NCBI GenBank assembly: GCA_963790185.1
Contig: CAWBNR010000010.1
Coordinates: forward strand, 91,499-155,498
Reading direction: 5' to 3'
From: an uncultured Thermoleophilia bacterium
Lineage (GTDB): Bacteria; Actinomycetota; Thermoleophilia; UBA2241
DNA length: 64,000 nt
Shown: piece by piece, positions 11,734-31,165 of the stretch
Position numbering within the stretch: the stretch's first letter is position 1
How the letters are laid out: the number at the start of each line of letters is the position of its first letter
Translations under genes and position numbers: made by a program
The notes under the pieces: model-generated
Databases searched by the model: none
What the model was told of the DNA's origin: nothing
The model's input: only the letters and a program-made list of their open reading frames with translations

Positions 11734-14700
11734 GTGCGCGAAGCTGTCATCGAGAACCCGGTCATCAACTCGGCGTTCGCCGAGCCGCGTCGCCACTTCA
11801 AGTTCGACGACGACGGCATCACCAACGAGATCGTCGACGCTCGCCGCCCGAGCGCCTACTTCATCCCCGTCGCGCAGCCCAAGAAGAAGGGCAAGCAGCT
11901 CGAGCTCGGCACCGAGTGGACCGATGACCGGCTGCGCGAGAACGACTACATCAACGAGGTGCGCGCAGCCGTCGGCGCACTGGCGCGCACGCGACTACCC
12001 GGGCATCACGCGTACGACCCGCCGCCTGCTCGAGTACTGGCAGCGGCGCGACCGCGACCGGCGGCTCTTCTTCTGTCAGATCGAGGCGGTCGAGACGGCC
12101 ATCTTCCTCACGGAGTACGCGCCGAAGCTCGGCACAGCCTCACCTGCTCAACCGCCTGAAGGAAGCGAACGAGGCGGCCAACCCGGGCCTCGACCGCATC
12201 GCCGTCAAGATGGCGACCGGCAGCGGCAAGACCGTCGTCATGGCGATGCTCATCGCCTGGCACGCGCTCAACAAGGTCGAAGACCCGCAGGACGCCCGCT
12301 TCAGCGACTCGTTCCTCATCGTGGCGCCGGGCATCACCATCCGCGACCGCCTGCGCGTGCTGCTGCCCGAACGACCCCGACAACTACTACCGCAAGCTCG
12401 ACGTCGTGCCGCTCGAGCTCATGGAGCGCCTCAACCGCGCCAAGGTCGTCATCACCAACTTCCACGCCTTCCTGCTCCGCGAGAAGGTCTCGGCCGGCAA
12501 GCTGACCAAGACGTCTGCTGGCCGGCCGCGACTCGGCCGCGCAGAGCCCCTTCACCGAGACGCCCGACCAGATGGTGCGCCGCGTCTGCCGCGAGTTCGG
12601 CAGCAAGCGCAACATCGTCGTGATCAACGACGAGGCACACCACTGCTACCGGGGCAAGCCCGCGGAGGCCGACGGACGAGGGCGACGGCGCCGCGCTCAA
12701 GGGCGAGGACAGGCAGGGAAGCCGCAGAAGCGCGACGAAGAGGCCCGCGTCTGGATCAGCGGCCTCGAGGCTGTCAAGAAGAAGATCGGCATCCGCGCCA
12801 TCTACGACCTCTCGGCGACGCCGTTCTTCCTGCGCGGCTCGGGCTACGCGGAGGGCACGCTCTTCCCGTGGGTGGTGAGCGACTTCTCGCTCGTCGACGC
12901 GATCGAGTGCGGCATCGTCAAGGTGCCGCGCGTGCCGGTGGCCGACGACGCCATGACCGTCGCAGATCCCGAAGTACCGCCACCTCTGGCCGCACGTCAA
13001 GGACAGCCTGCCGAAGAAGGGGCGCAAGACCGACGACGTCAGCCGGCGGCATGCCCGAGCTGCCCAAGGAGCTGCGAGGCGGCGCTGCACTCGCTCTACG
13101 GCAACTACGAGAAGTACTACGAGGCGTGGGAACGCGCCGCCGACGAGCGCGGCGAGGGCAGCCGGCTCACGCCGCCGGTCTTCATCGTCGTCTGCAACAA
13201 CACCAACGTCTCGAAGCTCGTCTTCGACTGGATCGCCGGCTGGGAGCAGACGATCAGTGAGGGCGACGAGGCCAAGACGCATCCGTCGCCCCCGGCAACC
13301 TGCAGCTGCTTCAGCAACGTCGAGCACCGGGCGAGTGGACCGACCGCCCCAACACCATCCTCATCGACTCGTCGCAGCTCGAGTCGGGCGAGGCGATGAG
13401 CCCCGACTTCAAGAAGATCGCGGCGCGCGAGATCGAGGAGTTCAAGGCCGAGTACCGCGAGCGCTTCCCCGAGCGCGACCCGGAGGCGATCACCGACGAG
13501 GACCTGCTGCGCGAGGTCATGAACACGGTCGGCAAGCCGGGGCGCCTGGGCGAGCAGATCAAGTGCGTGGTCTCGCGTCTCGATGCTCACCGAGGGCTGG
13601 GACGCGAACACCGTGACGCACGTTCTGGGCGTCCGCGCCTTCTCGACGCAGCTGCTCTGCGAGCAGGTCGTCGGGCGCGCGCTGCGGCGCACCACCTACG
13701 TGACCGACGAGAACGACATGTTCCCGGCCGAGTACGCCGAGGTCTACGGGGTGCCGTTCTCGTTCATCCCGGTCGGGCCGGCGATCAGCACGCCGGTGCT
13801 TGCCCAAGAAGGCGACGCGCGTGCGCGCGCTCGACGGAGCGCGTCGCGCGCGAGATCACCTTCCCGCGCCTCACCGGCTACCGCTACGAGCTGGCCGGCG
13901 AGCGGCTCGACGCGTCGAGTTCGACGACGGCTCCGGCATGGCGCTCTCGACCGCCGACGTGCCGACCAAGGTCGAGAACGCGCCGATCATCGGCGAGGCA
14001 GTCATCCACACGCTCGACGAGCTCAAGGCGCAGCGCCCCCAGGAGGTCGACTTCCTGCTCGCCAAGCTGGTCTACGAGCAGTACTTCTGCGGCGACGACG
14101 GGCGACGCGCAAGCCGTGGCTCTTCCCGCAGATCCTCGCGGCGTCGCAGCGGCTGGCTGCAGCGAGTGCCTGACCTGCAAGGACGACTGCTTCCCGCAGA
14201 TGCTGCTGCTCGTCGAGTACGCGCACAACGCCGCCGACAAGATCTACCGCGCCATCGTCGACGGCGACGCCCGGGCGAGAAGCTGCTGCATGCCGATCCT
14301 GCAGCCCTACGACACGGTGGGCTCGACCAGCTACGTCGACTTCGACACCACGCGCCCGGTCATGGGTGACCGACCCCGACAAGTGCCACATCTCGCACGT
14401 GGTCTGCGACACCGACTCGTGGGAGCAGAAGATGGCGCAGGTGCTCGAGGACATGGACGAGGTCGAGAGCTACGTGAAGAACCACAACCTCGGCTTCTTC
14501 ATCCCGTACACCTTCGACGGCGAGGCGCACAACTACATCCCCGACTTCATCGTGCGGCTGCGCGTCGACGGCGCCGACGGCAGCGAGCCGCTCAACCTCA
14601 TCATCGAGGTCTCGGGCGAGGCCAAGACGGAGAAGGCCGCCAAGGTGCGAGACGGCGCGCACCCTCTGGGTGCCGGCCGTCAACAACCACGGCGGCTTCG

Positions 14701-14789
14701 GCCGCTGGGGCTTCATCGAGATCAGCGACCCGTGGGACGCGAAGAACACGATCCGGGCCGCCCTCGCGGCTGGCGGGGTGCTTGCATGA
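11734..14789 (+). pseudogene. res: Type III restriction enzyme Res subunit (DEAH helicase plus C-terminal PD-(D/E)xK), broken as sequenced by more than 20 single-base frame shifts
   Basis: Chaining the frames gives MREAVIENPVINSAF..., RLFFCQIEAVETAIFLTE, KMATGSGKTVVMA (motif I) and VVINDEAHHCY (DEAH). It continues with [29 protein letters not shown], and YIPDFIVRL...[10 protein letters not shown]. Confidence 0.85.
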
Positions 14790-15536
14790 CTGGCAACCGC
14801 GGCATCGGCTGGGCCGAGGAGAGCTGGAACCCCACTACCGGCTGCACCAAGGTGAGCCCTGGCTGTGCGCACTGCTGGGCCGAGCGCATGGCGTGGCGGC
14901 TGCGGGGGATGGGTCAGGAGCGGTACGTCGCGCGGCTTCCAGGTCACCACGCACGAGGATCTGCTCGAGAAGCCGTTGCACTGGGTGAAGCCGCGGCTGG
15001 TCTACGTGAGCTTCATGGGTGACCTCTTCCACGACGAGGTGCCGGACGAGTTCATCGAGCGCGTGTTCGACGCGATGGAGCGCTCGCCGCGGCACCGCTT
15101 CCACCTGCTCACCAAGCGCCCGGAGCGGCTCGCAGGCTTGAGCCGGCGTCTGCCCTGGCCCGCCAACGTCTGGTCGGGCGCGACGGTGGAGGACGCTGCG
15201 CACCTCGGCCGCGCCGACCAGCTACGCCAGACCGGCGCGGCCGTGAAGTACCTCGTGCTCGAACCCCTCCTCGGCCACGTCGACGACCTCGATCTCACCG
15301 GCATCGACTGGATGATCGTCGGCGGCGAGTCCGGGCCCGGCGCGCGGCCGATGCACGCCGACTGGGTCAGGTCGGTCCGCGACCAGTGCGTCGCGGCCGG
15401 CGTGCCGTTCTACTTCAAGCAGTGGGGTGGCGTGCGCCGCAAGGAGACCGGGCGCGAGCTCGACGGACGGTTGTGGAGTGAGAAGCCGCAGGGCCCCGGC
15501 CAGCTCGGCTTCGGGGGAATGGAGGCGGTCGTCTGA
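14786..15536 (+). pseudogene. DUF5131 (phage Gp37/Gp68 family) protein with one +1 shift near 14930-14945
   Basis: The motif [30 protein letters not shown] is followed by [36 protein letters not shown] and FYFKQWGG. The ATGA overlap with the res stop is at 14786-14789. Confidence 0.8.
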
Positions 15537-18236
15537 TGCCGAGAGCCAGGAAACCCACCGGCCCCAAGCCCGTCGACTCCCTGCCGGCACCAGGACAAGC
15601 GCACCAACATCCCGACCAACGAGCTGCGCGGCTTCGTCGAGGGTGACGAAGCCGCGCCCGGCGCCATGCTCTACCCCCGCGACCCGTCGCTCGACCCGCA
15701 GCTCGTCTGGAAGGGCAAGGACGAGCAGGACGCCCGCGACCTCGAGGTGCCGGTCGTCCCCATCTACATCCAGGAGAAGATCCTGCCGCAGGTGATCATC
15801 GAGAACCTGCGCGACACGGCGCGCAAGGGCGAGCCCGAGCCCGAGATGACGCTCTTCAACGACTACGACGGCATCGAGTTCCAGGAGCTCGTCGAGTTCT
15901 ACCGCCACGAGCAGAACTGGGCCAACCGCATGATCCTCGGCGACTCGCTGCTGGTGATGACCTCGCTGGCCGAGAAGGAGGGCCTCAAGGGCAAGGTCCA
16001 GATGATCTACATGGACCCGCCCTACGGCATCAAGTTCGGCAGCAACTGGCAGGTGAGCACGCGCAAGCGCGACGTGAAGGACGGCAAGGCCGAGGACGCG
16101 ACCCGCCAGCCCGAGCAGATCAAGGCCTTCCGCGACACCTGGGAGCTCGGCATCCACTCGTACCTCGCGTACCTGCGCGACCGCCTGACGGTCGCGCGCG
16201 AGCTCCTCACCGAGAGCGGCAGCATCTTCGTGCAGATCGGCGACGAGAACGTGCACCTCGTGCGGTGCGTGATGGACGAGGTGTTCGGGAGCGAGAACTT
16301 CGTGATCGCAGATCGACTTCAGCAAGACGACCGGGGCAGCAGCCGCGATGCTACGCCGGCACGTCTGCGACTACCTTCTGTGGTACGCGAAGAGATCGAG
16401 AGTCGGCGAAGTACCGCCAGCTCTATCGTCGAGAAGGCCGTTCGGCGGTGAGGGCGGCGGCAAGTACGACGCGGCTGGAGCTGCCGGATGGTACACGACG
16501 ACGCTTGACGTCGCGGGAGCGGACGGATCCGAGCCTGCTGCCCGCCGGCGCTCGGGTCTTCCGACTCGACGACCTCACGTCAGCCAGAGCGTCGCGCGGG
16601 CAGGGACGCACGGCATCGTTCCCGGTCGACGTTGACGGACGGGAGTATCGTCGCCCGTCGAAGCGGCGGCTGGAAGACCAACGAGGAGGGCATGAGCACG
16701 CTCCTCGCGTGCCGGTCGAGCTTCAGGCGTACGGCGAACACCCTCGCGCTACGTGCGCTTCATCGACGACTTCCCGGCGTTTCCGCTGACCAACATCTGG
16801 ACGGACACTGGCAGCGTCCGGCTTCGCGCGACCCGAAGGTCTACGTCGTTCAGACCGCGACGCACGGTCATCGAGCGGTGCATGCTGATGACGACTGACC
16901 CGGGCGACCTGGTGCTCGATCCGACGTGCGGCAGCGGCACGACTGCCGTATGCGGCTGAGCAGTGGGGTCGCCGCTGGATCACGGTCGACACCAGTCGCG
17001 TGGCGCTCGCCCTCGCTCGCACGCGCCTCATGGGCGCGCGCTTCCCGTACTACCTGCTGGCGGACTCGCCCGAGGGCGCGAAGCGCGAGGCCGAGCTGAC
17101 CGGCGTCCCGCCGGCGACCTCGGCCTACTCGGGCGACGTCCGCAAGGGCTTCGTCTACAAGCGCGTCCCGCACATCACGCTGAAGTCGATCGCCAACAAC
17201 CCCGACATCCGCGAGGGCATGTCGCGCGAGGAGATCGACGCCGCCATCCGCCGCCACGCCGACACCGAGCTGCTCTACGACCAGCCCTACGAGGACCGCT
17301 CGCGCATCCGCGTGACCGGGCCGTTCACGGTCGAGAGCCTCTCGCCGCATCGGATGCTGGCGGGCGCGCGACGGCGAGCGAGCGCGGACGGGCCGGCCGG
17401 CGAAGCCCCGCCGGCCCGCGACGCCGCCGACTTCGTCACCATCATCCTCGACAACCTGCGCAAGGCCGGCGTCCAGAACACCTTCAAGGGCGAGCGCCTC
17501 GTCTTCGAGCGCATCGAGCCCTACGCCGGCACCTACGTCCAGGCCGTCGGCGAGTACACCGACGCCGCCGGCAAGACCCTCCGCGCCGCCATCTCCATCG
17601 GCCCCGAGTACGGCACCGTCGACGCCGACCTGGGTCAAGGAGGCCGCCAAGGAGGCGCGCAAGGGCGAGGGCTTCCCGATGCTCGTCGTCTGCGCCTTCG
17701 CCTTCGGTCCCTACGTGAACGAAGAGACCAAGCAGTGGCCCAACCTCACCATCCTCATCACGCGCATGAACCCCGACCTCGCCATGGACACCGCCGACCA
17801 GAAGCTCCTCAAGAGCACCGGCGCCGGCAACCTCTTCATGGTCTTCGGCGAGCCCGACCTCGAGCTGCGCACCCTCCCCGACGGCAAGCTGCAGGTGGAG
17901 CTCCACGGCCTCGACGTCTACGACCCCACCACCGGCGAGATCCGCAGCGACACCACCGACGAGATCGCCTGCTGGTTCATCGACACCGACTACAACGAGG
18001 AGAGCTTCTTCGTGCGCCACGCCTACTTCACCGGCGCCGACGAGCCCTACAAGAAGCTCCAGCGCGCCCTCAAGGCCGAGATCGACGAGGACGCCTGGTC
18101 GACCCTCTACAGCACCGTGAGCCGCCCGTTCGACCCGCCGTCGACCGGCAAGATCGCGGTGAAGGTGATCAACCACTACGGGGACGAGGTGCTGAAGGTG
18201 TACGAGTCTCAGTCGGCGGAAGCAGGATCGCGTTGA
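15536..18236 (+). pseudogene. mod: Type III Mod DNA methyltransferase (beta-class N6A/N4C), with about 14 +1 shifts as sequenced, mostly within 16300-16960
   Basis: MIYMDPPYGIKF (motif IV) lies upstream of LVLDPTCGSGTTAV (motif I). TGATG couples the start to the DUF5131 stop at 15534-15538. The long C-terminal region ends ...KVINHYGDEVLKVYE. Confidence 0.85.
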
Positions 18237-18996: not shown

Positions 18997-20469
18997 ATGG
19001 ACTTCCTTCTTGATACAAACGTGCTGATTCCCGCCGAGCCAACCTCGCCGGGCGACGTGGAGATGGGCACGCCCGTTATCGTCGAACTCCTGCGGCTGGT
19101 GCGCACCGCAGGTGGACGCCTTCTCGTGCACCCGGACGCGTACACCGAAATCGGGCGTGACCACGACGAAGTCAGGCGATCCCTGCGCCTCGCCTTGGCC
19201 GGGAAGTACCCTCGTCTCGACTCCCCTCCAGGTCTTTCGGAGGACCTCGCGCGAATAATCGGCGAGCCGGATCCCGAGTCTCATGACGCGGTGGACGCCA
19301 GGCTTCTCGAGGCGATTCGATCCGGGCGCGCCGACATTCTCGTCACCGACGACGCAGGGCTGCATCGAAGGGCGCGGTCGGCCGACCTCGGCGATCGAGT
19401 CCTTACCTTGTCCGATGCTCTACTGCTTGCCCGCCAGCTTCATGAGCCCACGCCGGTCGCCCCACCGGCGGCTCGGGCCGTGTCGGCGGCACAGCTGAGC
19501 TGTGCGGACCCGATATTCGAGGACCTGCGCGCCGAGTACTCGGGCTTTGACGATTGGCTGGCCAAGGCGGCTCGGCTTCATCGGCACGCGTGGGTCGTCG
19601 AGCGCGACGGCAACAGGTACGCAGCGGTGGCCATCGTGAACGAGGAGACTCCTCTCGAACACGGGCTGCCGGGCAAGCTCCTCAAAGTGTGCACCTTCAA
19701 GGTTTCGGACGACCACCAGGGCAACCGCTATGGCGAGCTATTGCTGAAAGCGATCCTCGATTATGCCGCCGCTCACGGTTACGAAACGCTCTTCGTGGAG
19801 GCGAAATCAGACAAGCTGTTTCTTTTCGAGTTCCTCGAGCAGTTCGGCTTCCGTCGGCTTGACGTTCTGAAGGATGGGACCGATCCGGTGCACGCGAAAT
19901 CGTTGCGGCCTCCCGTAGGAGGAGCGGTGGATCTGTCGCCTTTGCAGTTCCACATCGCGTTCGGACCGCCAGCGCTACGATGGGAGGGCGTACCCGCGTT
20001 CATCGTGCCTATCAGGCCGGAGTATCACGAGCGGCTCTTCCCTGAGGCCGAGCCGCAGCTCTCCCTACTGAACGACACCGAGGCACACGGCAACGGGATT
20101 CGCAAGGCGTACCTGTGTCGCGCCAACACGCGACGGATCGAGCCGGGCAACCTTCTGTACTTCTATCGATCCGCCAGCTCCACGCTCACAGTGGTGGGGG
20201 TGGCCGAGGACGTGAACGTGCTATCCGACCCTGCTGGTATCGTGAGGGCGGCAGGAAAGCGTACGCTTTACACGTATCAGCAGATTGAGGAGATGGTCGT
20301 TGGGGAGCGCGAAGTCCTCGTGATTGGTCTTCGACAGGCGCGTGTGCTGAGGCCGCCGGTCGAATACGCCGAGCTCTTTGGGGGAGGCGTCCTCAGAGGA
20401 CGACCGCGAAGCGTGATGTCGATCGGCGAGGAGGCGGCACGATGGCTTGCGCAGAGAGTCGGGTTGTAG
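18997..20469 (+). CDS. PIN-domain / GNAT acetyltransferase / ASCH-like (PUA-fold) triple-domain protein
   Basis: The PIN domain shows MDFLLDTNVLIP... and ILVTDDAGLHRRA. The GNAT domain shows KVSDDHQGNRYGELLLKAILDYAAAHGYETLFVEA...FGFRRL. The C-terminal part (FIVPIRPEYHERLF...LLYFYRS...VVGVAEDV...RPRSVMSI) parallels the next gene. Confidence 0.7.
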   Translation: MDFLLDTNVLIPAEPTSPGDVEMGTPVIVELLRLVRTAGGRLLVHPDAYTEIGRDHDEVRRSLRLALAGKYPRLDSPPGLSEDLARIIGEPDPESHDAVDARLLEAIRSGRADILVTDDAGLHRRARSADLGDRVLTLSDALLLARQLHEPTPVAPPAARAVSAAQLSCADPIFEDLRAEYSGFDDWLAKAARLHRHAWVVERDGNRYAAVAIVNEETPLEHGLPGKLLKVCTFKVSDDHQGNRYGELLLKAILDYAAAHGYETLFVEAKSDKLFLFEFLEQFGFRRLDVLKDGTDPVHAKSLRPPVGGAVDLSPLQFHIAFGPPALRWEGVPAFIVPIRPEYHERLFPEAEPQLSLLNDTEAHGNGIRKAYLCRANTRRIEPGNLLYFYRSASSTLTVVGVAEDVNVLSDPAGIVRAAGKRTLYTYQQIEEMVVGEREVLVIGLRQARVLRPPVEYAELFGGGVLRGRPRSVMSIGEEAARWLAQRVGL

Positions 20470-20957
20470 TGCTTCTGCCGATCAAGCCGCGCTATGCGGA
20501 GCCGATCATGGCCGGCCGCAAGCGCGTGGAGTTCCGTAAGATCCCCTTTGCGCGTGCGCCGTCCCACGTGGTCGTCTACGCGAGCAGTCCGGTCAAGCAG
20601 GTGCTCGGGTACTTCGAGGTCTCTGACATCGATATCGACGACGTTGACGCACTGTGGGCAAAGCACGCGCGGGTCGGCGGCATCGCGGAGGACCAGTTCG
20701 CGCGGTACTTCTGTGGGCGCGATGCCGGCGTGGCCATCGGTGTCGGGCGCGTCGTCACAGCCGGGCGCCCCATGGCGCTCGCTGACCTCGGTCTGAGCGG
20801 GCGGCCTCCTCAGAGCTTCAGTTACGTCGATGCTGCGGTCCTCGGCAGGCTGCAGGACGAGGGTACGCGGAACCAGGATTGGGCAGGCACAGCACGTCGC
20901 GCTCGGTTGCGGGGGCGCCGCTGCTGGCGGACTCGTCCCGGTCTCGAAGCCGGCTGA
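20469..20957 (+). CDS. ASCH-domain protein. The start is taken as GTG 20469, overlapping the upstream TAG, with ATG 20442 as the alternative.
   Basis: The segments LLPIKPRYAEPIMAGRKRVEFRK (GxKxxExR), VVVYASSPVKQVLGYFEV and RPPQSFSYV are present. Confidence 0.7.
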   Translation: MLLPIKPRYAEPIMAGRKRVEFRKIPFARAPSHVVVYASSPVKQVLGYFEVSDIDIDDVDALWAKHARVGGIAEDQFARYFCGRDAGVAIGVGRVVTAGRPMALADLGLSGRPPQSFSYVDAAVLGRLQDEGTRNQDWAGTARRARLRGRRCWRTRPGLEAG

Positions 20958-20979: not shown

Positions 20980-21324
20980 GTGACACCACGCGTCGCCACC
21001 AACGCCTTCATCGCCAACACCGACTTCGGCTGGTTCTCGCACTTCCTGCACCGCGCCGAGCCGCCGGACGAGGTCGACTTCTGGCAGCCCTCGCCGCACG
21101 GCTTCAAGGCGATCCCGCCGGGCGCGCCGTTCTTCTTCCGTCTCGGCGCGCCCCACAAGGCCATCGCCGGCTTCGGCTTCTTCGCGCGCTACGAGCGCGT
21201 GCCCGCGTGGCTCGCCTGGGAGTCCTTCGGCGACCTGAACGGCACCGACACCTTCGCCGAGATGACGGCGCGCATCGAGGCGATCCGCCGCCGCACCGGG
21301 GAACTCCTACTCCAAGGGGCTTGA
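20980..21324 (+). CDS. Truncated N-terminal domain of an actinobacterial family usually annotated HNH endonuclease (possibly a PUA-like reader). No HNH part is present. It may be fused to the next ORF if one extra base is an artefact.
   Basis: The sequence reads FIANTDFGWFSHFLHRAEPPDEVDFWQPSPHGFKAIPPGAPFFFRL...IAGFGFFARYERVPAWLAWESFGDLNGTDTFAEMTARIEAIRRR. The stop at 21322-21324 is followed by ATG 21326 in the +1 frame. Confidence 0.55.
   Translation: MTPRVATNAFIANTDFGWFSHFLHRAEPPDEVDFWQPSPHGFKAIPPGAPFFFRLGAPHKAIAGFGFFARYERVPAWLAWESFGDLNGTDTFAEMTARIEAIRRRTGELLLQGA
21006..21096. repeat. 91-nt direct repeat, copy 1. It matches 25362-25452 at 90 of 91 positions.
   Basis: Manual ungapped alignment at a constant offset of 4356 nt. 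The single mismatch is 21075 C versus 25431 T. Confidence 0.9.
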
Positions 21325-21325
21325 G

Positions 21326-22975
21326 ATGCCGACCAATCGCGAAGTCCTGCCCGACTACCTCGCCCGCTACCAGCGGGTCGTCTTCGTGGGGACTGCGGCA
21401 GGGAACGCCTCCGCGAGCCTCGGTCACTACTACGCCAGCCAGGGCAACGCGTTCTGGGAACTGCTCTACGGTGCGGGCCTCACGACGTCCAGCCTTGAGC
21501 CTCGCGAGGATGCGTGGGTTCTGGTAGACAGGATCGGGCTGACCGATCTCTACAAGCACCACCACGGCATGGACGATACGCTGCCCGCTGACGGCCACGA
21601 CATCGGGCGCTTCGTCGGGAAGATCGAGAAGCACGCGCCTGACTGGGTCGCCTTCACGAGCAAAGCCGCCGCCCGGACCGCCGCGAAGCTTCTGGACCGT
21701 TCCGCAGACTTGGTGCACCTTGGGCCGCAGGCCGACTGGCAGATCGGTCGCAGCCGAGTGTTCGTTCTGCCCAGCCCAAGTGGGGCCAATCGTGGGCGGA
21801 GCGGCCTGGAGGGGAGGGCGAGCCGGCTTGAGTGGTACGCAGAGCTCCGCGACTGCGCGTGGCCGCAGGCAGAAGTTCCCCGTTGCCTGGGCAGGGCGCT
21901 CTGCTCAGAGTTGCTGCGTGCGCTGCGGTTTGGTCACTTGCGCCCGCTGCTCTCGGCAACGCTGAGGGATACCACGCTGGATCTGGAGTTCCGCGGCAAT
22001 GCCTTCAACATCTACTACCGTGGCGGCAGCCTGGTCTCCGTGAACCGCAACCCGTCGACAGGTGAGCTGGTCTGCAAGTTCGATCCTGAGTACACGGACA
22101 CGACCCATAGCCGCGGCCGCGCTCCAAAGAAGGGGGCACCGAAGGCCGCCATGGACCTGCCCGACCGCAAGGTGGACACACTCGACGCTGTCACGGCGTG
22201 GGTCGATCTATTCCCGCGGCTCAAGAGCGCGATGGATGTCTACTTCGGCAACCCCAGCCATCCGAAGGAGGAGCGTCAGTACTCTCAGGAGACGGTGCGC
22301 TCTAACAACTTCGGCTCTGCCTGCGACAAGACGGACTACGTGATGGCCGACCTCGAGTACAAGGCGGCCTGCGCGTGGGAAGACCCCGGCGAGGGGCCGA
22401 GGAAGAAGGGCATGTACTTCGATCTCGTGGGTGCGTACTGGCCGTCCACCGGCGCATCCCGGCGAAACCCCGACAAGCTGCGGCTCTCCATCATCGAGGT
22501 GAAGTACCGCGACGCCGTGCTACAGGGTGAGCAAGGGCTCGTGGAGCACATGCGCGACGTCATGCGCTGGTTCGCACCCGAGAAGGTGGCGGCGCTCAAG
22601 ACGGAGATGCTCGCGGTGCTGCAACAGAAGCACTACCTGGGGCTGATCTCCTCCGCCAAGCCTCCGACGGGCTTCGATGGTGGGCGGGTCGAGTATCTGG
22701 TTCTTCTGGCGGATCACGACCCCGGCTCCCGCGTTCTTCACAACGTGCTGTCACAGGTCGAGCGCGAAAGGCCGCTGGCCGGCCCGGACGGCGTCGATGT
22801 CGTCGATCTTCGCTTCTGCACGGGGACGTTCATGGGCTACGGCATTTGGAGGGAAGGCCTCAAGACGTTGGCAGAGCTGCGGTCCAGCCATGACCGCCAG
22901 ATCTACTCCAGATCGTCGTCACGCGGGACGAGCACACCTGGGATGCCCCCATCTCTGGTACCAGCAGAAGGGTGA
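21326..22975 (+). CDS. MUG/TDG-family (UDG family 2)-like DNA glycosylase domain fused to a C-terminal putative PD-(D/E)xK nuclease domain
   Basis: The N-terminus aligns by eye with E. coli Mug. VVFVGTAAGNASASLGHYYASQGNAFWELLYGAGLT corresponds to VFCGINPGLSS...ANRFWKVIYQAGFT, and VFVLPSPSGAN corresponds to WVLPNPSGLS. The C-terminus has MYFDLVG followed 24 aa later by LSIIEVKY. Confidence 0.65.
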   Translation: MPTNREVLPDYLARYQRVVFVGTAAGNASASLGHYYASQGNAFWELLYGAGLTTSSLEPREDAWVLVDRIGLTDLYKHHHGMDDTLPADGHDIGRFVGKIEKHAPDWVAFTSKAAARTAAKLLDRSADLVHLGPQADWQIGRSRVFVLPSPSGANRGRSGLEGRASRLEWYAELRDCAWPQAEVPRCLGRALCSELLRALRFGHLRPLLSATLRDTTLDLEFRGNAFNIYYRGGSLVSVNRNPSTGELVCKFDPEYTDTTHSRGRAPKKGAPKAAMDLPDRKVDTLDAVTAWVDLFPRLKSAMDVYFGNPSHPKEERQYSQETVRSNNFGSACDKTDYVMADLEYKAACAWEDPGEGPRKKGMYFDLVGAYWPSTGASRRNPDKLRLSIIEVKYRDAVLQGEQGLVEHMRDVMRWFAPEKVAALKTEMLAVLQQKHYLGLISSAKPPTGFDGGRVEYLVLLADHDPGSRVLHNVLSQVERERPLAGPDGVDVVDLRFCTGTFMGYGIWREGLKTLAELRSSHDRQIYSRSSSRGTSTPGMPPSLVPAEG

Positions 22976-23241: not shown

Positions 23242-23534
23242 GACGAGCCCTCCTCACGTCTGGGGCGGGCCGCCGTCGGGCCCTTGCGTCCGTACTACCC
23301 CTTTAGAACGCTTCGAGAACGCCCTCTCCCTGGTCTTGCGGGTTCACGACCCGTCGTCGCCCAGTCGGCCGCGACGGTCGGCCGCTGGGGGCATCCCGCT
23401 GGGCAGTCTCAGGTCGATGACCGCGTGATGCAGAACAGCTAGCGCCGCCGCTGTGTCCGGCGCACGGGCTGGTAGTCGTCTCGTACACCTTCTGCAGCTG
23501 GGGGAGGGTGAACTCCTCCGGGCAGAAGGCCGTC

Positions 23535-23613
23535 TGGATCGCCCGGGAGTCCTTAGGCGACCTGAGCGGCAGCGACACCTTCGCCGAGATGACGGCGCGC
23601 ATCCAGGCGTTCC
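23535..23613 (+). pseudogene. Internal fragment (...WIARESLGDLSGSDTFAEMTARIQAF) of the same N-terminal domain as 20980..21324
   Basis: It matches 21208-21286 at 72 of 79 nt with no gaps (offset 2327). Confidence 0.7.
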
Positions 23614-23682: not shown

Positions 23683-24912
23683 ATGAGCAAGGACGATCGA
23701 CTTCCCTATCTCCACGCGCTGGCCCATCTGCGCACGCCGGACGAAGCACCGTGGACTGATCGCCGGTACGGCAAAACCCCTGACGATGATCCGCGACCAG
23801 CCTTCGAGCGGGACCGCGACCGCATCATCCACAGTGAGTACTTCCGCCGGCTGCAGCACAAGACGCAAGTCCTCATCGTGACCGAGGGCGATCTCTACAG
23901 CACGCGTCTCATGCACTCGGTCGAGACAGCGCAGGTTGGCCGGTCTCTTGCCTGCTCACTCGGCCTCAACGCTCCGCTCGCGGAGGCCATCTGCCTCGGC
24001 CACGACGTCGGTCACACACCGTTCGGCCACCAGGGTGAGGAGACTCTCAAGCGGTTACTCGATGATCATGGGGGCTGGGACTCGAACCACCACTCGCTGC
24101 TTGTCCTCGACGAGATCGAGGTGCAGTACCCGGCGCATCTCGGGCTCGATCTCACGATGGCGGTTCGTGAGGGCATCGCGCGCCACAAGACCGCCTACGA
24201 TGACCCTGCGGTGGGCTACGGGTCGGGCTCCGAGCTTGGTGCTCACAAGTCTCCCTCGCTCGAGGCTCAGACCGGCAACGTGGCCGATGAGGTGGCCTAC
24301 GTGAGTCATGATGTTCACGATGCTCTTGAGCACGGGTTGGTCACTCGCGACGAGCTCGGCGACGCGCTCTCTGAGGTGAGCCTGTGGCGGCGAGCGAGTG
24401 TCAAGACCGATGCCGAGATCAAGTCGATTCATCCTGAGGGGTGGAAAGGCGTCGACGAGTGGAAGCTGACGGTCCGGTGGTTGCATCGCAACCTGATCTC
24501 GATACTGCTCGACGACGTGCTGACGGAATCGGCTCGGCGTGGGGCTGGGCACGCCGATCTGCTCGCCGCTCGCGATGACCCAACGCCGGTCATCGCCTTC
24601 TCTGATGAGATGCGTCCACAGCTCGATCGCGTACGCGGCTACCTCCACGAGCGCGTGTACAAGGGCCCGCTGGTCGCGCGGCAGAACGCCAAGGCCGACC
24701 ACGTCCTGGAGAGGCTGTTCGAGACGCTGTGCGCCAAGAGGCTGCTGCTGCCGTGGCATGTCCAGCAGCGGATCAACGGCTCCGAGGACGCCACGGTCAT
24801 CGCCAAGAACGTCGCCCTGTTCCTTGTCAGTCTCACCGACAGGGCCGCCATCGACTTGTACGGCGAGCTGTTCATCCCGTCCGACCGTGCCATGGGGCAC
24901 CATGTGCACTGA
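23683..24912 (+). CDS. dGTPase-family dNTP triphosphohydrolase (HD domain)
   Basis: The segments FERDRDRIIHSEYFRRLQHKTQV, RLMHSVETAQVGRSL and GHDVGHTPFGHQGEE are present. Confidence 0.85.
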   Translation: MSKDDRLPYLHALAHLRTPDEAPWTDRRYGKTPDDDPRPAFERDRDRIIHSEYFRRLQHKTQVLIVTEGDLYSTRLMHSVETAQVGRSLACSLGLNAPLAEAICLGHDVGHTPFGHQGEETLKRLLDDHGGWDSNHHSLLVLDEIEVQYPAHLGLDLTMAVREGIARHKTAYDDPAVGYGSGSELGAHKSPSLEAQTGNVADEVAYVSHDVHDALEHGLVTRDELGDALSEVSLWRRASVKTDAEIKSIHPEGWKGVDEWKLTVRWLHRNLISILLDDVLTESARRGAGHADLLAARDDPTPVIAFSDEMRPQLDRVRGYLHERVYKGPLVARQNAKADHVLERLFETLCAKRLLLPWHVQQRINGSEDATVIAKNVALFLVSLTDRAAIDLYGELFIPSDRAMGHHVH

Positions 24913-25323: not shown

Positions 25324-25539
25324 ATGCCTCAGAGCGCCCGGCCAACCTCTGCGGCATCCGGCTTCATCGCCAACACCGACTTCGGCTGGTTCTCGCACTT
25401 CCTGCACCGCGCCGAGCCGCCGGACGAGGTTGACTTCTGGCAGCCCTCGCCGGCTATGGCTTGGACGGGGTGTGGTACTACGGCGCGGCTGAGCCACGGG
25501 TTGCTTGACCGGCGCGCGCCGGACGTGTTCCGCGGCTGA
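25324..25539 (+). pseudogene. Third copy of the same N-terminal domain, covering only the 5' part (aa 1 to about 43), then unrelated sequence and a stop
   Basis: The translation is MPQSARPTSAASGFIANTDFGWFSHFLHRAEPPDEVDFWQPSP, then it diverges. It contains repeat copy 2. Confidence 0.6.
25362..25452. repeat. 91-nt direct repeat, copy 2, paired with 21006-21096
   Basis: See copy 1. Confidence 0.9.
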
Positions 25540-25658
25540 ACGTCACCTCTGCTCGGCAATAGTCACCCCGGTGCCACACGGAGACTCCGGTTAGGCTCCG
25601 GGTGGCATGAAACGGCCAGATAGGCAGAGTGGTCAGGAGGCGGTGACCTGCGAGTCCC

Positions 25659-25694
25659 TTGAAAGGTCGCTGGGTATGACGTATCATCATACCC
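25659..25694 (+). promoter_or_regulatory. mazEF promoter with -35 TTGAAA (25659-25664), a 17-nt spacer and -10 TATCAT (25682-25687). It is overlapped by the inverted repeat GGGTATGA-N7-TCATACCC (25672-25694).
   Basis: Read directly. RBS GGAGG lies at 25695-25699 and the ATG at 25706. Confidence 0.55.
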
Positions 25695-25705
25695 GGAGGT
25701 GCATC

Positions 25706-25948
25706 ATGGGGCGCTCGAAGATAGCCATCACCATCGATGAGGAGACGCTCGGCGCGATCGACCGGCTGGTGGCCGAGCACCGTTTCCCCAACCGCAGTCA
25801 AGCCATCCAGGAGGCTCTCGACGAGAAGCTGACGCGACTCGCTCACAGCCGCTTGGCGCAGGAGTGCACGAAGCTCGACCCGGGCTTCGAGCAGGCTCTG
25901 GCCGACGAAGGCATGGGCGGAGAGCTGGCCGAGTGGCCCGAATACTGA
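25706..25948 (+). CDS. mazE: Ribbon-helix-helix (CopG/MazE-type) antitoxin
   Basis: The sequence reads [42 protein letters not shown]. It overlaps the toxin start. Confidence 0.75.
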
Positions 25949-26271
25949 GGGGCGCCGTCCACTGGGCCGATCTGGACCCGACCCGCGGGCACGAGCAGTC
26001 GGGCCGGCGGCCCGTCCTCATCCTGAGCGCCGACGTCTTCAACGAGCGCTCGGGCACGGTGATCGCGGTTGCGCTGACGACACAGTCTCAACGAGCCGGC
26101 TTCCCTCTGACCTTGGAGCTGGGCGCTGCGCGGTTTCCCAAGCCATCGTGGATCAAGATCAGCCAGATCCGCACCCTGTCGGTGCAGCGCATCGGCCGCA
26201 AGCTCGGGGCCGCCTCACCGGAGGAAGTCGCGCAGGTCATCGAGGGCCTGAATGAGATCTTGGGGGCGTGA
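25933..26271 (+). CDS. mazF: MazF/PemK-family endoribonuclease toxin
   Basis: The sequence reads [46 protein letters not shown]...[21 protein letters not shown] 25933 overlaps the mazE stop by 16 nt. Confidence 0.8.
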
Positions 26272-27163: not shown

Positions 27164-27196
27164 AGCAACGCTTCACGAGTGGCGGAGGGAGGCGCT

Positions 27197-27517
27197 GTGA
27201 AGATTCGCTCAGACAGAGACATCGGGGTGCGTATTGCCGGCCTGCTTGGCGATCGGCCCCAGCGAGAGCTTGCCGAGGCGGTGGGCATGCAGCCACCCGT
27301 GCTGAGTCGGGCACTGGCGGGCGAGAGGGCGTTCAACATGTCTGAGGTCGTCGATATCGCTGACTACCTTGGAGTCCCCGCCGAGGAGCTGCTGTTCGAT
27401 GAGCAGCCGGCGTTCGTCAAGCGCGGTGCGGCGGACGATGGCGCCACGAACGACGCCATCGTCCGCTGTTCGAGACTCATCGACGCCATGCTGCAGATCG
27501 AGGCCGTCGGCCGATGA
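27197..27517 (+). CDS. XRE-family HTH regulator
   Basis: The HTH segment RELAEAVGMQPPVLSRALAGERAFNMSEVVDIADYLGV is present. GTG 27197 follows GGAGGGAGG. Confidence 0.7.
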   Translation: MKIRSDRDIGVRIAGLLGDRPQRELAEAVGMQPPVLSRALAGERAFNMSEVVDIADYLGVPAEELLFDEQPAFVKRGAADDGATNDAIVRCSRLIDAMLQIEAVGR

Positions 27518-28308
27518 CCTACATCTCCGAGCTCGAGAGGGGTGAGGCGGCCGCCAGACTGGCTCGCGTTCGCCTCGGCCTGGGGCTCGAGGTGCCGGTG
27601 GCGGACATCGTGCTCGGGATCGAGGACCTCGCGGGCATCCCCGTCACGGTGCTCGCGCTGCCGGGGGGGCTTGCCGGCCTCCAAGGCCGCAAGCACGACC
27701 GCAGCTTCATCTTTGTGAATGGGGCCGACTCGGCGGTGCGGCAGCGTTTCACCCTCGCTCATGAGTTCGGGCACGTCGAGCTGGGTCACATCGGGTCGGT
27801 GGACTACACGACGGACGTGTTCGGTGAACGGGGCCGGCCGCCGGCAGAGGTCCAGGCCGACGGGTTCGCGAGCGAGTTCCTCGCTCCAGCCGATGGGGTA
27901 CGACGCTGGCTGGCAGCGATGGGCGAGCCACCTGACGACCTCGATACCGTCGTGCGTCTCGCGGAGTACTTCCATGTCAGCGCTGAAGCCGCTCTCTATC
28001 GCCTGCAGAGGGCACGGCACCTGACCAAAGGCAGGGTCGAGGCCATCAAGTCGCGCATCGCTGCGGGCGAGCACAGTGCACTCTGCCGTCGTCTGGGCCT
28101 GGGCGAGCACGAAGACACACTGAGCCACGCACACGGCGACCTGCCGCGCATGCCTCGGGCCACCATCACGGAGGCCGCCACCGCCTACGAGCGCGGCCTC
28201 CTGACGGTCGAGCAGATCGCGCGACTTCTCGAGGTCGACCCGGATCGCGTGCACGGCGAGTTCGACCGTCGCGGCATTCAGCCGGGCCGCCACGAGCCAG
28301 ACTACTGA
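27514..28308 (+). CDS. ImmA/IrrE-family (COG2856) zinc metallopeptidase
   Basis: The HEXXH motif lies within FTLAHEFGHVELGH. There is an ATGA overlap with the XRE stop. Confidence 0.8.
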   Translation: MTYISELERGEAAARLARVRLGLGLEVPVADIVLGIEDLAGIPVTVLALPGGLAGLQGRKHDRSFIFVNGADSAVRQRFTLAHEFGHVELGHIGSVDYTTDVFGERGRPPAEVQADGFASEFLAPADGVRRWLAAMGEPPDDLDTVVRLAEYFHVSAEAALYRLQRARHLTKGRVEAIKSRIAAGEHSALCRRLGLGEHEDTLSHAHGDLPRMPRATITEAATAYERGLLTVEQIARLLEVDPDRVHGEFDRRGIQPGRHEPDY

Positions 28309-28314
28309 GTCTTC

Positions 28315-28899
28315 ATGCGCTCGCAGTCGGCAGAGGAGCTTCTGCTCGACGCCAGCGTGCTCTGTCGCTTCGCCGAGCACGGGCTGCTTGCTGCACTCCG
28401 TAGCTACCTGGCCGACCGTGCTCGCATCACGCGTGAGGTCGAGCGCGAGCTGCTTCGTCTTGCCGATACTTCGGAGTTCCGGCAGCTCCATGACCACCTC
28501 GCCAGCGCTGGGTCGGTTGCGCGAGTGCGAGGAAGGTGGCCCAAGCGGACCAAGAACCTGCCCGATGGTCTGAAGCCCGAGTTCGCGAGGATCCTCGGCC
28601 TGAAGCGCTCGCTCGGCGAGCACGAGCGCGCCCACGCGGGCGAGATTGCCACGGTACTCATGGCCGCTCACCGCCACACGAGCTTGGTTGTGATCGATGA
28701 CAACTGGGGGAGCGACCTCGCGAGGAAGACCTACGGCCTCGATGTGATGTCGACCGCACGGCTCGCTCAGGAGATGGTCGTCGCCGGTGCGCTTCCCGTG
28801 GGCGAGGGTTTCAAGGTGTTCGACAGCGCCACGCCTCGCGACGTAGGACGCGCGCGATACGACGCGAGCCTGCAACGACTGCGTTCGAAGGGCTCATGA
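28315..28899 (+). CDS. PIN-like nuclease domain protein
   Basis: The acidic quartet context is LLLDASVL, TREVEREL, AGEIATVLMA and LVVIDDNWG. Confidence 0.55.
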   Translation: MRSQSAEELLLDASVLCRFAEHGLLAALRSYLADRARITREVERELLRLADTSEFRQLHDHLASAGSVARVRGRWPKRTKNLPDGLKPEFARILGLKRSLGEHERAHAGEIATVLMAAHRHTSLVVIDDNWGSDLARKTYGLDVMSTARLAQEMVVAGALPVGEGFKVFDSATPRDVGRARYDASLQRLRSKGS

Positions 28900-28994: not shown

Positions 28995-30349
28995 GCCGGC
29001 ATCGACTTCCTGGGGTTTCCGCAACGCACCACATCATTCACCGCGGCCAGCACGAGATCGGCGGCATGTGCATCGAGGTTGCCGCCGATGACGGCACGCG
29101 TGCCGCGAGAGACGGGACGTGCGCGCGGCCGGCGGCACGCGCGTACTGCTCGACCTCGGCATGCCGCTCACGGCGCCGGACGGCGGCGACTTCCCGCGCG
29201 GCACGCCGCAGCGGCCGACCGAGGAGCTGATCGCCGAGGGCGTCCTGCGCGACGTCCCCGGCGTCTTCCCGCACGACCCGACGGCGCCGGCCGTCGCGGC
29301 CATCGTCCTCACGCACTCGCACCTCGACCACTACGGCCTCGCCCACCACGCGCACCCGGCCATCCCGGTGTACGGCAGCGAGGGGACGATCGCGATCCTC
29401 GAGGTCGGGCGCGTGTTCTTCCCCGACGCCGCGCTGCCGCCGACCTGCGCCTGCTTCCCGACCGACGAGACGCTGCGCTTCGGCGGCGGCTCGACGCGGC
29501 TGCACCGTGACGCATCCCCGTCGACCACGCGGCGCCGGACTCGCGCGCGCTGCTCGTCGAGGCCGACGGGCAGCGCCTGCTCTACACCGGCGACCTGCGC
29601 GCCCACGGCCGCACCGGCTTCCGCTTCGAGAACCTGCTCGCCGACGAGCGCGTGCGCGGCGTCGACTGGCTGCTCGTGCGAGGGCACGACGCTGGGCTCG
29701 TCCGGCGGCACGCACGGGCTGCGCTCGCGAGGCCGACGTCGAGGAGCGAGCTCGCTCGAGCTCGCGCGCGGCGAGCCGGACAAGCTCATCGCCGTCGCCG
29801 CCTCGGGCCAGAACCTCGACCGCCTCGTCTCCTGCTTCCGCGCCGCGAGGCGCAGCGGCCGCCAGCTCGTCGTCGACGCCTACCAGGCCTACGTGCTCAT
29901 GCAGCTCGCGCCGCTCTCGCCGAGCATCCCGCAGGTCGACTGGGACGGCGTGCGCGTCAAGCTTCGCGCCGCACCAGGTCGAGCGCCTCAAGGAGGCCGG
30001 CCTCATGGACCTCGCCCGCGAGATGAGCGAGCAGGGCCGCGTCTCGAGCGACCGAGCTCGCCGCGCAGCCGGGGCGCTTCCTCATGTGCACGCGCGGCAG
30101 CTGCGGCGTGACGAAGCTCTTCGACAAGGTCGGCGCCGGACCGCGTCGTCCTCGTCTGGTCGATGTGGCGCGGCTACTGGGAGCGCGACGGCGCGCGATG
30201 CGCGAGTGGGCCGACGCGCCACGGCGTCGAGGCGCACTTCGTCCACAGCGGCGGCCACGCGTGGCCCGAGGACCTCGCGCCGGCTGGTCGAGGCGATCGC
30301 GCCGAAGCACAAGCCGGTATGGGTGCATACGGAGGCGGCTGCCGGCTGA
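28995..30349 (+). pseudogene. MBL-fold metallo-hydrolase (RNA-processing/beta-CASP-like), with several +1 shifts as sequenced and an unresolved 5' end
   Basis: The fragments are HEIGGMCIEV, GTRVLLDLGMPL, IVLTHSHLDHYG, LLYTGDLRAHG and ...GGHAWPEDLARLVEAIAPKHKPVWVHTE. Confidence 0.6.
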
Positions 30350-30500
30350 TCCTGCAGCCCCCCTGATGAACGTCACACCTGCCGACGGTCAGCATCCTTG
30401 AGCGCCTTCCCGCCACCGGCGAAGCTCGGGGGCTGCGCCGGGGTTGGGCTCACACCCATCGTCGTTGGCCGCTACGGCGCGCCGTCGAAGGGTGCATCAT

Positions 30501-30884
30501 TTGTGGTACACTGGCAGCAGAGCGACGACAGGCGGCGGCAGGGGGCCGATCCTGCATGTCGTCTTCTATCGCTCCGGCATCGGCAGCGAGCCGGTGCGCG
30601 AATGGCTTCTGGCCCTGAATCGTGAAGATCGAAGGACCATCGGCGACGACATCAAGACGGCACAGTACGGGTGGCCTCTGGGTATGCCCCTGATCGGCAA
30701 GCTCGAGCCGGGTCTCTGGGAAGTGAGGTCTCGCGTTCGCAGTGGGACTGCGCGAGTGATGTTCACGGTCGACGGCGACACCATGGTCCTCCTGCACGGT
30801 TTCGTCAAGAAGTCGGCGAAGACCCCGACGGCGGACCTCAAGACAGCGCGCCGGCGCCTCGCGAGAGCACAGGGAGCAACGTGA
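30501..30884 (+). CDS. Gp49/DUF891-type HigB/RelE-superfamily toxin. The start is uncertain, with in-frame candidates 30444, 30492, 30501 and 30552.
   Basis: The sequence reads VVFYRSGIGSEPVREWLLALNREDRRTIGDDIKTAQYGWPLGMPLIGKLEPGLWEVRSRV...VLLHGFVKKSAKTP. Confidence 0.75.
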   Translation: MWYTGSRATTGGGRGPILHVVFYRSGIGSEPVREWLLALNREDRRTIGDDIKTAQYGWPLGMPLIGKLEPGLWEVRSRVRSGTARVMFTVDGDTMVLLHGFVKKSAKTPTADLKTARRRLARAQGAT

Positions 30885-31165
30885 TGGATGAGCCGCATAT
30901 CGGCAGTGACTTCGACGACTTCCTGCGGGACGAAGGCCTTCTGGACGACGCGGAGGCTACCGCCGCGAAGCGTGTGGTCGCCTTTCAGATCGGGCAGGAG
31001 ATGAAGCGCGCACGGCTGACGAAGTCGGAGATGGCGCACCGCATGAAGACGAGCCGGCCCGCAGTCGATCGTCTCCTCGACCCGGCCAACCGCTCCGTCA
31101 CGCTCTCAACGCTCGAGCGTGCGGCGGCGGCAGTCGGCAAGAAGCTCAGGATCGAGCTGATGTAG
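30884..31165 (+). CDS. XRE/HigA-like antitoxin
   Basis: There is a TGATG overlap with the toxin stop. The segment GQEMKRARLTKSEMAHRMKTSRPAVDRLLDP is present. Confidence 0.7.
   Translation: MDEPHIGSDFDDFLRDEGLLDDAEATAAKRVVAFQIGQEMKRARLTKSEMAHRMKTSRPAVDRLLDPANRSVTLSTLERAAAAVGKKLRIELM

Follow-up and report, generated by a model that had tools for sequence, protein, structure and literature searches.

A Mug-like glycosylase domain fused to a probable PD-(D/E)xK nuclease in an actinobacterial defence island

The fusion gene and its integrity

The DNA analysed here, referred to as the window, is a stretch of 64,000 nucleotides from an uncultured Thermoleophilia bacterium (assembly GCA_963790185.1, contig CAWBNR010000010.1, positions 91,499 to 155,498). 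It carries a gene for a 549-residue protein, hereafter the fusion gene, in which an N-terminal Mug-like glycosylase domain is followed by a domain resembling PD-(D/E)xK nucleases. The latter (residues 185–538) belongs to an unnamed family, for which X family serves as a working name. The gene and its parts are listed below, with the evidence for each in parentheses.

21326..22975, + strand: fusion gene, Mug-like glycosylase domain and PD-(D/E)xK-like X-family domain, 549 residues (open reading frame, homologues P0001–P0003, alignments with L001 and L002, dN/dS)
21326..21877, + strand: N-terminal Mug-like domain, residues 1–184 (Pfam PF03167, alignment with PDB 2c2p/2c2q, motifs)
21878..22938, + strand: X-family domain, residues 185–538 (740 clusters, invariant columns, AlphaFold2 model, sub-threshold PDDEXK_9 matches)
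22939..22975, + strand: window-specific tail, the last 12 codons and stop (blastn end points against L001, L002, and L088)

The motifs GTAAG (residues 22–26), LPSPSGAN (148–155), KEERQYSQE (314–322), MYFDLVG (363–369), and SIIEVKY (388–394) all lie where an original prediction, made from the letters of the window without database searches, had reported them in this open reading frame (ORF). The spacing of 24 residues that it gave for the last two applies to the interval from D366 to E391, whereas the quoted strings themselves are 17 residues apart. The frame is indeed open from 21266, 20 codons upstream of the ATG. In blastn comparisons with L001, L002, and L088, similarity to all relatives stops at 22938, just ahead of the relatives' stop codon.

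The fusion gene is not a chance product, because the same 549-residue architecture recurs in three further clusters at 90% identity (P0001–P0003; 83–92% identical, 531–539 residues). The fusion is nevertheless rare, with four such clusters in total; that of the window protein itself has 11 members, drawn from NCBI, JGI, ENA, and Logan. Alignment of window positions 21266–22938 with the Logan contig L001 covers 1673 nucleotides with zero indels, and that of the fusion gene with L002 contains a single in-frame indel of 3 nucleotides. The ratio of nonsynonymous to synonymous substitution rates (dN/dS) against L002 is 0.19 overall; taken alone, the glycosylase half gives 0.24 and the X half 0.18. 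Values per domain range from 0.18 to 0.27 across the comparisons, except for 0.48 for the C-terminal domain against L001, which is a shallow comparison. Both halves are under purifying selection, and the fusion gene is a real single gene. The original prediction had allowed for an artefactual joining of two genes around 21830–21900; such an error is excluded by the colinearity of the three full-length homologues and the selection on both halves, and the indel record likewise speaks for one true ORF. A promoter and terminator scan around the fusion gene yielded nothing above the shuffled expectation. A scan of the genome collection with the single protein as query recovered only its own genome, and the fusion gene was not found in an IMG/VR scan.

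An N-terminal domain of the Deinococcus radiodurans MUG type

On profile evidence, the N-terminal domain is a member of the uracil-DNA glycosylase (UDG) superfamily, family-2 Mug-like, of the D. radiodurans MUG type. Residues 11–174 match the Pfam UDG model PF03167 over profile positions 3–140/141 (E 5.5e-13, 49.6 bits against a cut-off of 24.3). The best match in the PDB is D. radiodurans MUG (2c2p, E 1.4e-18 over residues 7–175); lower in the ranking come E. coli Mug (1mug, E 1.9e-12) and then human TDG. The Mug similarity that had been noticed by eye is therefore recovered by profiles. The NCBIfam Mug equivalog is matched with E 2.8e-17, although the score of 62.9 bits falls well short of the cut-off of 144.

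Motif 1 lacks the asparagine of the classical enzymes: it reads GTAAG here, GTAPS in D. radiodurans MUG, and GINPG in E. coli Mug. The domain is accordingly not a classical family-2 enzyme of the E. coli type, for which GINPG with a catalytic Asn is diagnostic, but it shows the features of D. radiodurans MUG, namely a GTA-type motif 1 without Asn and an Asp at the position of D93. Residues 7–109 align without gaps with residues 17–119 of 2c2p, so that D83 corresponds to D93, the position changed from Asp to Ala in PDB entry 2c2q. D83 and the GTA motif are conserved in all five recovered homologues (P0001–P0005). Asp93 is reportedly the catalytic residue of D. radiodurans MUG, as described by Moe and co-workers in 2006; D83 is a candidate catalytic residue on the assumption that D93 has this role. 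Motif 2, an xPSG-type loop, is retained: LPSPSGAN (148–155) aligns with its counterpart in 2c2p and in 1mug, and the motif of E. coli Mug is NPSGLS. The original prediction had rightly recorded the missing Asn and the preserved second motif, and had concluded that the domain might be non-catalytic. That conclusion does not follow: a Mug subclass without the Asn is already known from D. radiodurans MUG, the domain falls into it, and a separate paper reports that the uracil-DNA glycosylase activity of this nearest solved relative was confirmed (PMC9796141).

The same Asn-less Mug type occurs in P0005 (L096 8001–9068), fused to a different N-terminal domain of approximately 190 residues. A stretch SKLLHF is common to this domain and to the gene that precedes the fusion gene in L002 (L002 12–752), although the pairwise E-value of 0.12 is not significant.

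A C-terminal domain of a large unannotated family

An exhaustive HMMER search of 1.84 billion representatives with the X domain returned 740 clusters (50% identity) at E <= 0.001, 125 of them at E <= 1e-30. Nearly all of these relatives are stand-alone proteins of 300–330 residues that match end to end. A profile search of a 5.8-billion-protein set gave 854 clusters, all annotated as hypothetical and none with a Pfam domain. Its members come from a wide range of bacteria and from at least one archaeon. Residues 185–549 of the fusion protein match no Pfam, NCBIfam, or PADLOC model, and a PHROGs search with the X family was also empty.

In an alignment of 117 members that are 30–40% identical to the window protein, including the three fusion homologues, the invariant residues are D215, R223, Y230-Y231-R232-G233-G234, K300, E316, Q321, N327, D337, D342, E344, D366, W372, E391, K393, H408, H464, and G504. 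The core motifs that the original prediction had picked as those of a nuclease (E316, D366, and E391-x-K393) are thus exactly invariant positions. With the family alignment as input, AlphaFold2 produced a model of the X domain with a predicted local distance difference test score (pLDDT) of 89.9 and a predicted template modelling score (pTM) of 0.88. A small N-terminal helix/beta-hairpin subdomain bears the YYRGG motif (230–234). In model positions, to which 184 is added to obtain the window residue, the core consists of a helix (131–144), three strands (154–162, 180–187, and 201–210), a long helix, a strand (271–278), a helix, and a strand (309–314). E316 is located on helix 131–144, D366 starts the second strand (180–187), and E391-x-K393 lies in the third (201–210). 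In the model, this alpha-beta-beta-beta-alpha-beta order is that of the restriction-endonuclease, or PD-(D/E)xK, fold, with the motif residues in the matching places: an acidic residue on helix 1, an Asp on strand 2, and a (D/E)xK on strand 3.

A Pfam scan of the 117 members at E <= 1 found PDDEXK_9 in 46 of them (best E 0.0044, all under the cut-off) and UPF0102, another PD-(D/E)xK family, in five. Leaving aside the UDG domain that the three fusion homologues carry, every other Pfam family appeared in at most four members. A further relative, P0207, matches PDDEXK_9 at E 0.0008. On the basis of motifs, model, and weak profile matches, the X domain probably represents a new family of PD-(D/E)xK nucleases.

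Genomic partners and additional modules of the X family

The neighbours of X-family genes were surveyed in 80 metagenome loci (L008–L087), which form 66 clusters at 95% identity, 54 of them with enough flanking sequence. A metallo-beta-lactamase-fold gene of approximately 420 codons lies directly 3' of the X gene in 42 of these 54 informative clusters, and the same pair is present in L003 and L004. Partner and X gene share a strand in 48 of 50 loci; where the partner lies downstream, −34 to +57 nucleotides separate the two in 42 of 46 loci. Its product matches RNase J and other beta-CASP models. The unit of X-family and beta-CASP gene is absent from Pfam, NCBIfam, and PADLOC.

The surroundings of this pair are varied, with scattered matches to defence models in a minority of neighbours. 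No conserved third partner was found beside it: the commonest Pfam family, REase-ARP, accounts for only 5 of 150 neighbouring ORFs. A REase-ARP gene stands beside a stand-alone X-family gene in L038 (2493–3482), and in two relatives the fusion gene faces a convergent PDDEXK_13/REase-ARP gene (L001 1638–2600 and L088 12810–13910, both on the − strand). Tblastn searches for the X family in plasmid and phage collections gave no match, and the IMG/VR scan returned only three members, at contig edges.

Extra modules are present in 17 of 264 X-family members, and the N-terminal ones represent at least three unrelated families. None of these N-terminal extensions is UDG-like. This pattern of modularity fits a constant effector with exchangeable sensors.

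Remnants of an HNH_2 gene around the fusion gene

Directly upstream of the fusion gene lies a 114-residue ORF, which is one of three pieces of the same gene type in the window.

20980..21324, + strand: remnant A, HNH_2 "putative restriction endonuclease" gene, 5' part (residues 1–108 of about 322) (family comparison; same junction in L001)
23529..23613, + strand: remnant B, HNH_2 residues 75–101 (89% DNA identity to 21203–21286; 70 nucleotides upstream of the dGTPase gene)
25342..25452, + strand: remnant C, HNH_2 residues 3–39 (25359–25452 with 98% DNA identity to 21003–21096)

Remnant A begins with a GTG at 20980 and ends with a stop at 21322–21324, which one base separates from the ATG of the fusion gene at 21326. 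Its product is on record as the called protein P0006. Almost all of its 102 database relatives are short, with similarity ending at many different points; several are visibly frameshifted or internally deleted, and their source names read "HNH endonuclease" or "putative restriction endonuclease". Reconstruction of the parent gene from overlapping fragments and an intact 322-residue copy in L098 placed an HNH_2 domain (PF13391) at residues 219–267, behind an unannotated N-terminal domain. The ORF is therefore what the original prediction had recognised, the N-terminal part of a family annotated as HNH endonucleases that lacks the HNH part. Tblastn with full-length family members detected no HNH part in the 64-kb window, only residues 1–111, 3–39, and 75–101.

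The upstream ORF is what remains of a gene where two cassettes meet, and neither a domain nor a partner of the fusion protein. It is not part of that protein because the stop-N-ATG junction is identical in L001 and the eight JGI contigs L088–L095, a different gene stands upstream in L002, and the sequence shared by all four contexts is confined to 21333–22938, the fusion ORF itself. In L002 the fusion gene is preceded by an unrelated 246-residue gene, and the 3' HNH part of an HNH_2 gene lies downstream (L002 2356–2481). Remnant A ends at residue 108 or so of a domain that reaches approximately 135–150, with the loss of a predicted core strand, and it is frameshifted by a 1-nucleotide deletion in L088–L095.

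The predicted structure of the HNH_2 N-terminal domain is poor (pLDDT 58.8). Its Foldseek list is topped by ASCH, EVE, and DUF984 structures at E 0.03–5 and template modelling (TM) scores of 0.2–0.3, no Pfam match was obtained, and a sequence-profile search of the PDB was empty. The intact HNH_2 enzyme may contain a PUA-like reader, as these non-significant matches hint, and the HNH_2 gene probably belongs to the modification-dependent (type IV) restriction enzymes.

HNH_2 fragments recur between different defence cassettes, in the window and at L088 9641–9963 and 16832–17733, L002 2356–2481, and L098 6101–7069 and 9992–10947. The fusion gene stands beside a 5' HNH_2 piece in the window, L001, and L088, and beside a 3' piece in L002. 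P0022 joins a 5' HNH_2 piece to the 3' end of a type III mod gene, and a stray mod fragment occurs in L088 (18450–18664). In L098, a dGTPase-like gene (11319–12266) follows a frameshifted, otherwise complete second HNH_2 copy; given the same succession of HNH_2 and dGTPase genes in the window, this order seems ancestral. No recombinase gene was seen in the annotated parts of the window island.

A mosaic defence island

The fusion gene lies in an island of defence-related genes whose base composition is flat (G+C 64–70% for the window). From the 5' side, the order is a type III restriction-modification (RM) system at 11.7–18.2 kb, a small membrane-protein ORF, PDC-M11, remnant A, the fusion gene, remnant B, and a dGTPase gene, followed by remnant C, an RHH/MazF pair, an HTH/M78-peptidase pair, a 194-residue ORF, a frameshifted metallo-beta-lactamase gene, and an HTH gene.

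11734..18236, + strand: type III RM genes res, DUF5131, and mod, broken into many ORFs (88–90% DNA identity to the intact ResIII/DUF5131/N6_N4_Mtase genes of L088; DUF5131 by Pfam)
18997..20957, + strand: PADLOC candidate system PDC-M11, two genes (PDC-M11A, E 4.9e-162, PIN-GNAT; PDC-M11B, E 1.1e-39, ASCH; Pfam GNAT, PIN_3, ASCH)
23683..24912, + strand: dGTP triphosphohydrolase of the anti-phage type, intact (PADLOC dGTPase, E 3.5e-77; NCBIfam dGTPase models)
25607–26271: RHH antitoxin and MazF/PemK toxin (MazEF-like pair)
27179–28308: HTH_3 regulator and M78 (IrrE/ImmA-type) peptidase
28315–28899: unannotated 194-residue ORF
29020..30350, + strand: frameshifted member of the beta-CASP metallo-beta-lactamase family (tblastn with the L003/L004 partners: three frame segments, 27–47% identical, E 1e-35 to 1e-46)
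30671–31165: HTH_37 protein

These surroundings bear out the defence setting that had been proposed for the fusion gene. PDC-M11, a candidate defence system with a PUA-like reader, stands directly upstream of the region of remnant A and the fusion gene. An HTH-M78 fusion and a PemK toxin are also encoded downstream of the close homologue P0002.

The JGI relatives L088–L095 share the type III backbone at 88–90% identity. Behind this backbone, the island of L088 contains a KAP NTPase gene, a remnant, a fusion gene interrupted by an insertion sequence (IS), REase-ARP, AbiE, a second, near-complete HNH_2 copy, and HicAB, as well as HEPN/MNT genes. P0005 is flanked by genes for an MmeI-like RM enzyme and an Abi_2 protein, and an integrase is encoded approximately 4 kb further on. 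The fusion gene moves as a gene-sized cassette between different neighbours, and the window and the JGI loci are a mosaic defence island.

The beta-CASP copy in the window is located approximately 6 kb 3' of the fusion gene and is broken by several frameshifts. Compared with the intact res gene of L088, window 12739–14758 contains 20 small insertions and 0 deletions in 2 kb, and 14792–16331 contains 3 insertions relative to L088, while the fusion ORF has none. The sole indel in the 1.7-kb stretch aligned with L088 falls in the upstream remnant. The uneven, insertion-only pattern that breaks res, mod, and the metallo-beta-lactamase gene looks, from sequence comparison, like an assembly artefact rather than natural decay.

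Proposed function and alternative explanations

We propose, with a probability of roughly 0.5, that the fusion gene encodes a self-contained, single-polypeptide, base-directed defence nuclease that forms one cassette of an actinobacterial defence island. A base-directed nuclease had been the gist of the original prediction and remains the best reading of the fusion. It is favoured because of the UDG match, the invariant nuclease residues and the model, the modularity of the X family, the maintenance of the fusion under selection, the defence context, and published precedents. The identities of the domains, the conservation of the candidate catalytic residues, the intact fusion, the selection, and the island are observed; from these we infer a defence role, glycosylase and nuclease activities, a coupling of the two domains, and a kind of substrate. 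The Mug-type domain, with Asp in place of the classical Asn, would flip out a non-standard pyrimidine in incoming DNA, for which uracil, a 5-substituted uracil or cytosine, or an etheno adduct are candidates, and would probably excise the flipped base. The X domain, as a putative metal-dependent PD-(D/E)xK-type endonuclease, may then cleave the DNA at the flipped base or abasic site, or close to it. Base recognition would thereby be turned into strand breaks, and the upstream 114-residue ORF would play no part.

Several results weigh against this proposal. Foldseek searches with the X-domain model found no significant neighbour in the PDB (best BsmI, E 0.078, low TM-score) or in BFVD (best E 0.015), a profile search of PDB sequences with the X domain found nothing, and none of PADLOC, Pfam, and NCBIfam contains the family. 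The nuclease assignment therefore rests on motifs, topology, and sub-threshold profile matches. In L088–L095 the fusion gene is split by an IS30-like element (HTH_38 and rve; for example, L088 11403–12637) at the point equivalent to window 22728/22730, in eight contigs from different samples that represent one metagenome population; the fusion gene is therefore dispensable there. The usual beta-CASP partner is adjacent to the fusion gene in none of its four contexts and absent within 10 kb in L088–L095, although a role for the distant, frameshifted copy in the window is conceivable. Stand-alone X-family genes often lie between housekeeping genes, a setting that would fit a role in repair or nucleic-acid processing as well.

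The version preferred in the original prediction, in which the Mug-like domain would flip and read unusual bases without cleaving the glycosidic bond and would license the nuclease, appears unlikely to us. The replacement of the classical Asn by GTAAG, the score of 62.9 bits against an equivalog cut-off of 144, and the use of an inactivated EndoIII fold in this way by END nucleases (PMC12191111) are in its favour. The closest solved relative is, however, just as Asn-less, and its glycosylase activity is reported as confirmed in the paper cited above (PMC9796141); moreover, the Asp at the position of the D93A substitution is conserved in every homologue seen, and motif 2 is kept. A housekeeping fusion, in which the glycosylase and a nuclease acting on the abasic site or a nearby structure would short-cut base-excision repair, would agree with the repair function of Mug and TDG, with the stand-alone X and beta-CASP genes found among housekeeping genes, and with the minority of neighbours that match defence models. 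This explanation is distinctly unlikely in view of the rarity of the fusion (4 clusters at 90% identity), its movement as a gene-sized cassette between different neighbours, and its place inside a mosaic defence island, where it is IS-disrupted in one population. The related Asn-less glycosylase P0005 also resides in an island of RM, Abi, and integrase genes.

Two further explanations involve other genes of the window. The fusion protein could work together with the beta-CASP nuclease encoded 6 kb downstream, as stand-alone X proteins presumably do with their adjacent partners; the regular position of the partner in 42 of 54 loci, mostly on the same strand and after a short gap, and the presence of a same-strand family member in the window would fit such a two-part system. 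It is quite improbable, given that the partner is missing beside all four fusion contexts and within 10 kb in L088–L095, that the window copy is broken by several frameshifts, and that cassettes with their own functions intervene. The original prediction had also suggested that the 114-residue ORF and the fusion gene might be a single three-domain protein, from which a sequencing frameshift in the +1 direction had split off a PUA-like reader; an obligatory pair of the two is a variant of this idea. The gap of 1 nucleotide, the 20 open codons upstream, the many insertion differences elsewhere in the record, and the PUA-superfamily structures at the top of the HNH_2 N-domain fold search, with their non-significant E-values, all invite it. 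The idea is hardly tenable and already contradicted: the comparison of assemblies over 21266–21326 shows the same stop and frames in the Logan and JGI data and no indel across the junction relative to L001, and L002 has another gene upstream. The ORF furthermore lacks a predicted core strand of its domain, the remnant is frameshifted in L088–L095, and the sequence further 3' holds two additional pieces of its parent gene.

A broader conjecture is tentative and less likely than not. The fusion may bring into view a new class of base-directed restriction enzymes, of which it would be the first to be seen and which would combine a Mug-type glycosylase with a PD-(D/E)xK nuclease family not recognised before. 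With its near-constant beta-CASP partner, the X family, at least 740 clusters from bacteria and some archaea, might form a widespread two-nuclease module described in no database, in which the partner or N-terminal add-ons (Mug and at least three others) would supply target recognition. Separately, HNH_2 fragments may mark an unrecognised stacking of defence cassettes.

If the proposed mechanism is true, it would extend the anti-phage use of repair glycosylase folds, known from Brig1–3, Dag1/2, and END nucleases, to the Mug/TDG family, in a design that fuses a probably active glycosylase to a nuclease. It would also give a first hold on the function of the large, unannotated X family and of its conserved beta-CASP partner, and a base-specific glycosylase-nuclease could serve to detect or cut DNA with particular modified bases.

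Comparison with known systems

The fusion protein resembles D. radiodurans MUG (DR0715; 2c2p, 2c2q) in its Asn-less motif 1 (GTAPS versus GTAAG) and in the Asp at D93/D83. That protein is a stand-alone repair enzyme of 199 residues without a nuclease domain, and its identity to the window protein is moderate. PDDEXK_9 (PF08011) and UPF0102 share with the X domain recurrent weak matches over the region of strands 1–3, the order of E, D, and ExK, and the predicted topology. In contrast to them, the X family shows no match at the curated cut-off and has an extra YYRGG subdomain and its own conserved His. Type IV restriction enzymes, in which a PUA-like sensor is joined to an HNH or PD-(D/E)xK nuclease, have the same modular architecture of sensor and nuclease. 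The sensor of the window protein is a glycosylase fold rather than PUA, EVE, SRA, or ASCH, and the window contains no HNH domain.

No match for the fusion protein was found in a scan of PADLOC-DB v2 (2023). The original prediction had known of no characterised system with this fusion, but close analogues have been published: the Brig systems (PMC11078745; 10.1101/2025.10.29.685425) and the END nucleases (PMC12191111). Brig1 and Brig2 are anti-phage glycosylases with a UDG fold that excise modified pyrimidines from phage DNA; the known homologues of Brig1 are mostly actinobacterial, and Brig systems occur in defence islands (PMC11078745; 10.1101/2025.10.29.685425). They share with the window protein a UDG-superfamily fold and a place in defence islands. 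They differ, in a comparison made by description rather than by sequence, in being monofunctional, single-domain proteins without a fused nuclease, and Brig1 is structurally nearest to the Sulfolobus uracil DNA glycosylase, not to Mug.

The closest published logic is that of the END nucleases, fusions of an inactive EndoIII glycosylase fold with a nuclease of the PLD or PD-DExK type that defend against phages with hypermodified DNA (PMC12191111). Here too, a glycosylase fold that would read non-canonical bases and a probable endonuclease are combined in one polypeptide. Their sensor is a catalytically dead helix-hairpin-helix (HhH) fold of the EndoIII/Ogg1 type linked to other nuclease families, whereas the window protein has a UDG fold; Pfam and NCBIfam scans of the fusion protein found no match to an HhH family, and it is not an END nuclease by the hallmark of an inactivated EndoIII/Ogg1 sensor. 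In END-PaCF1 the sensor is C-terminal, while the glycosylase domain of the fusion is N-terminal. Defence that is based on glycosylases or guided by glycosylase folds is thus already established. What is new here is the architecture of a Mug-type glycosylase and an X-family domain, and a large unannotated nuclease-like family with a conserved partner. Judged from sequence, the fusion differs from the published systems in its glycosylase superfamily, its nuclease family, and a likely retention of glycosylase chemistry.

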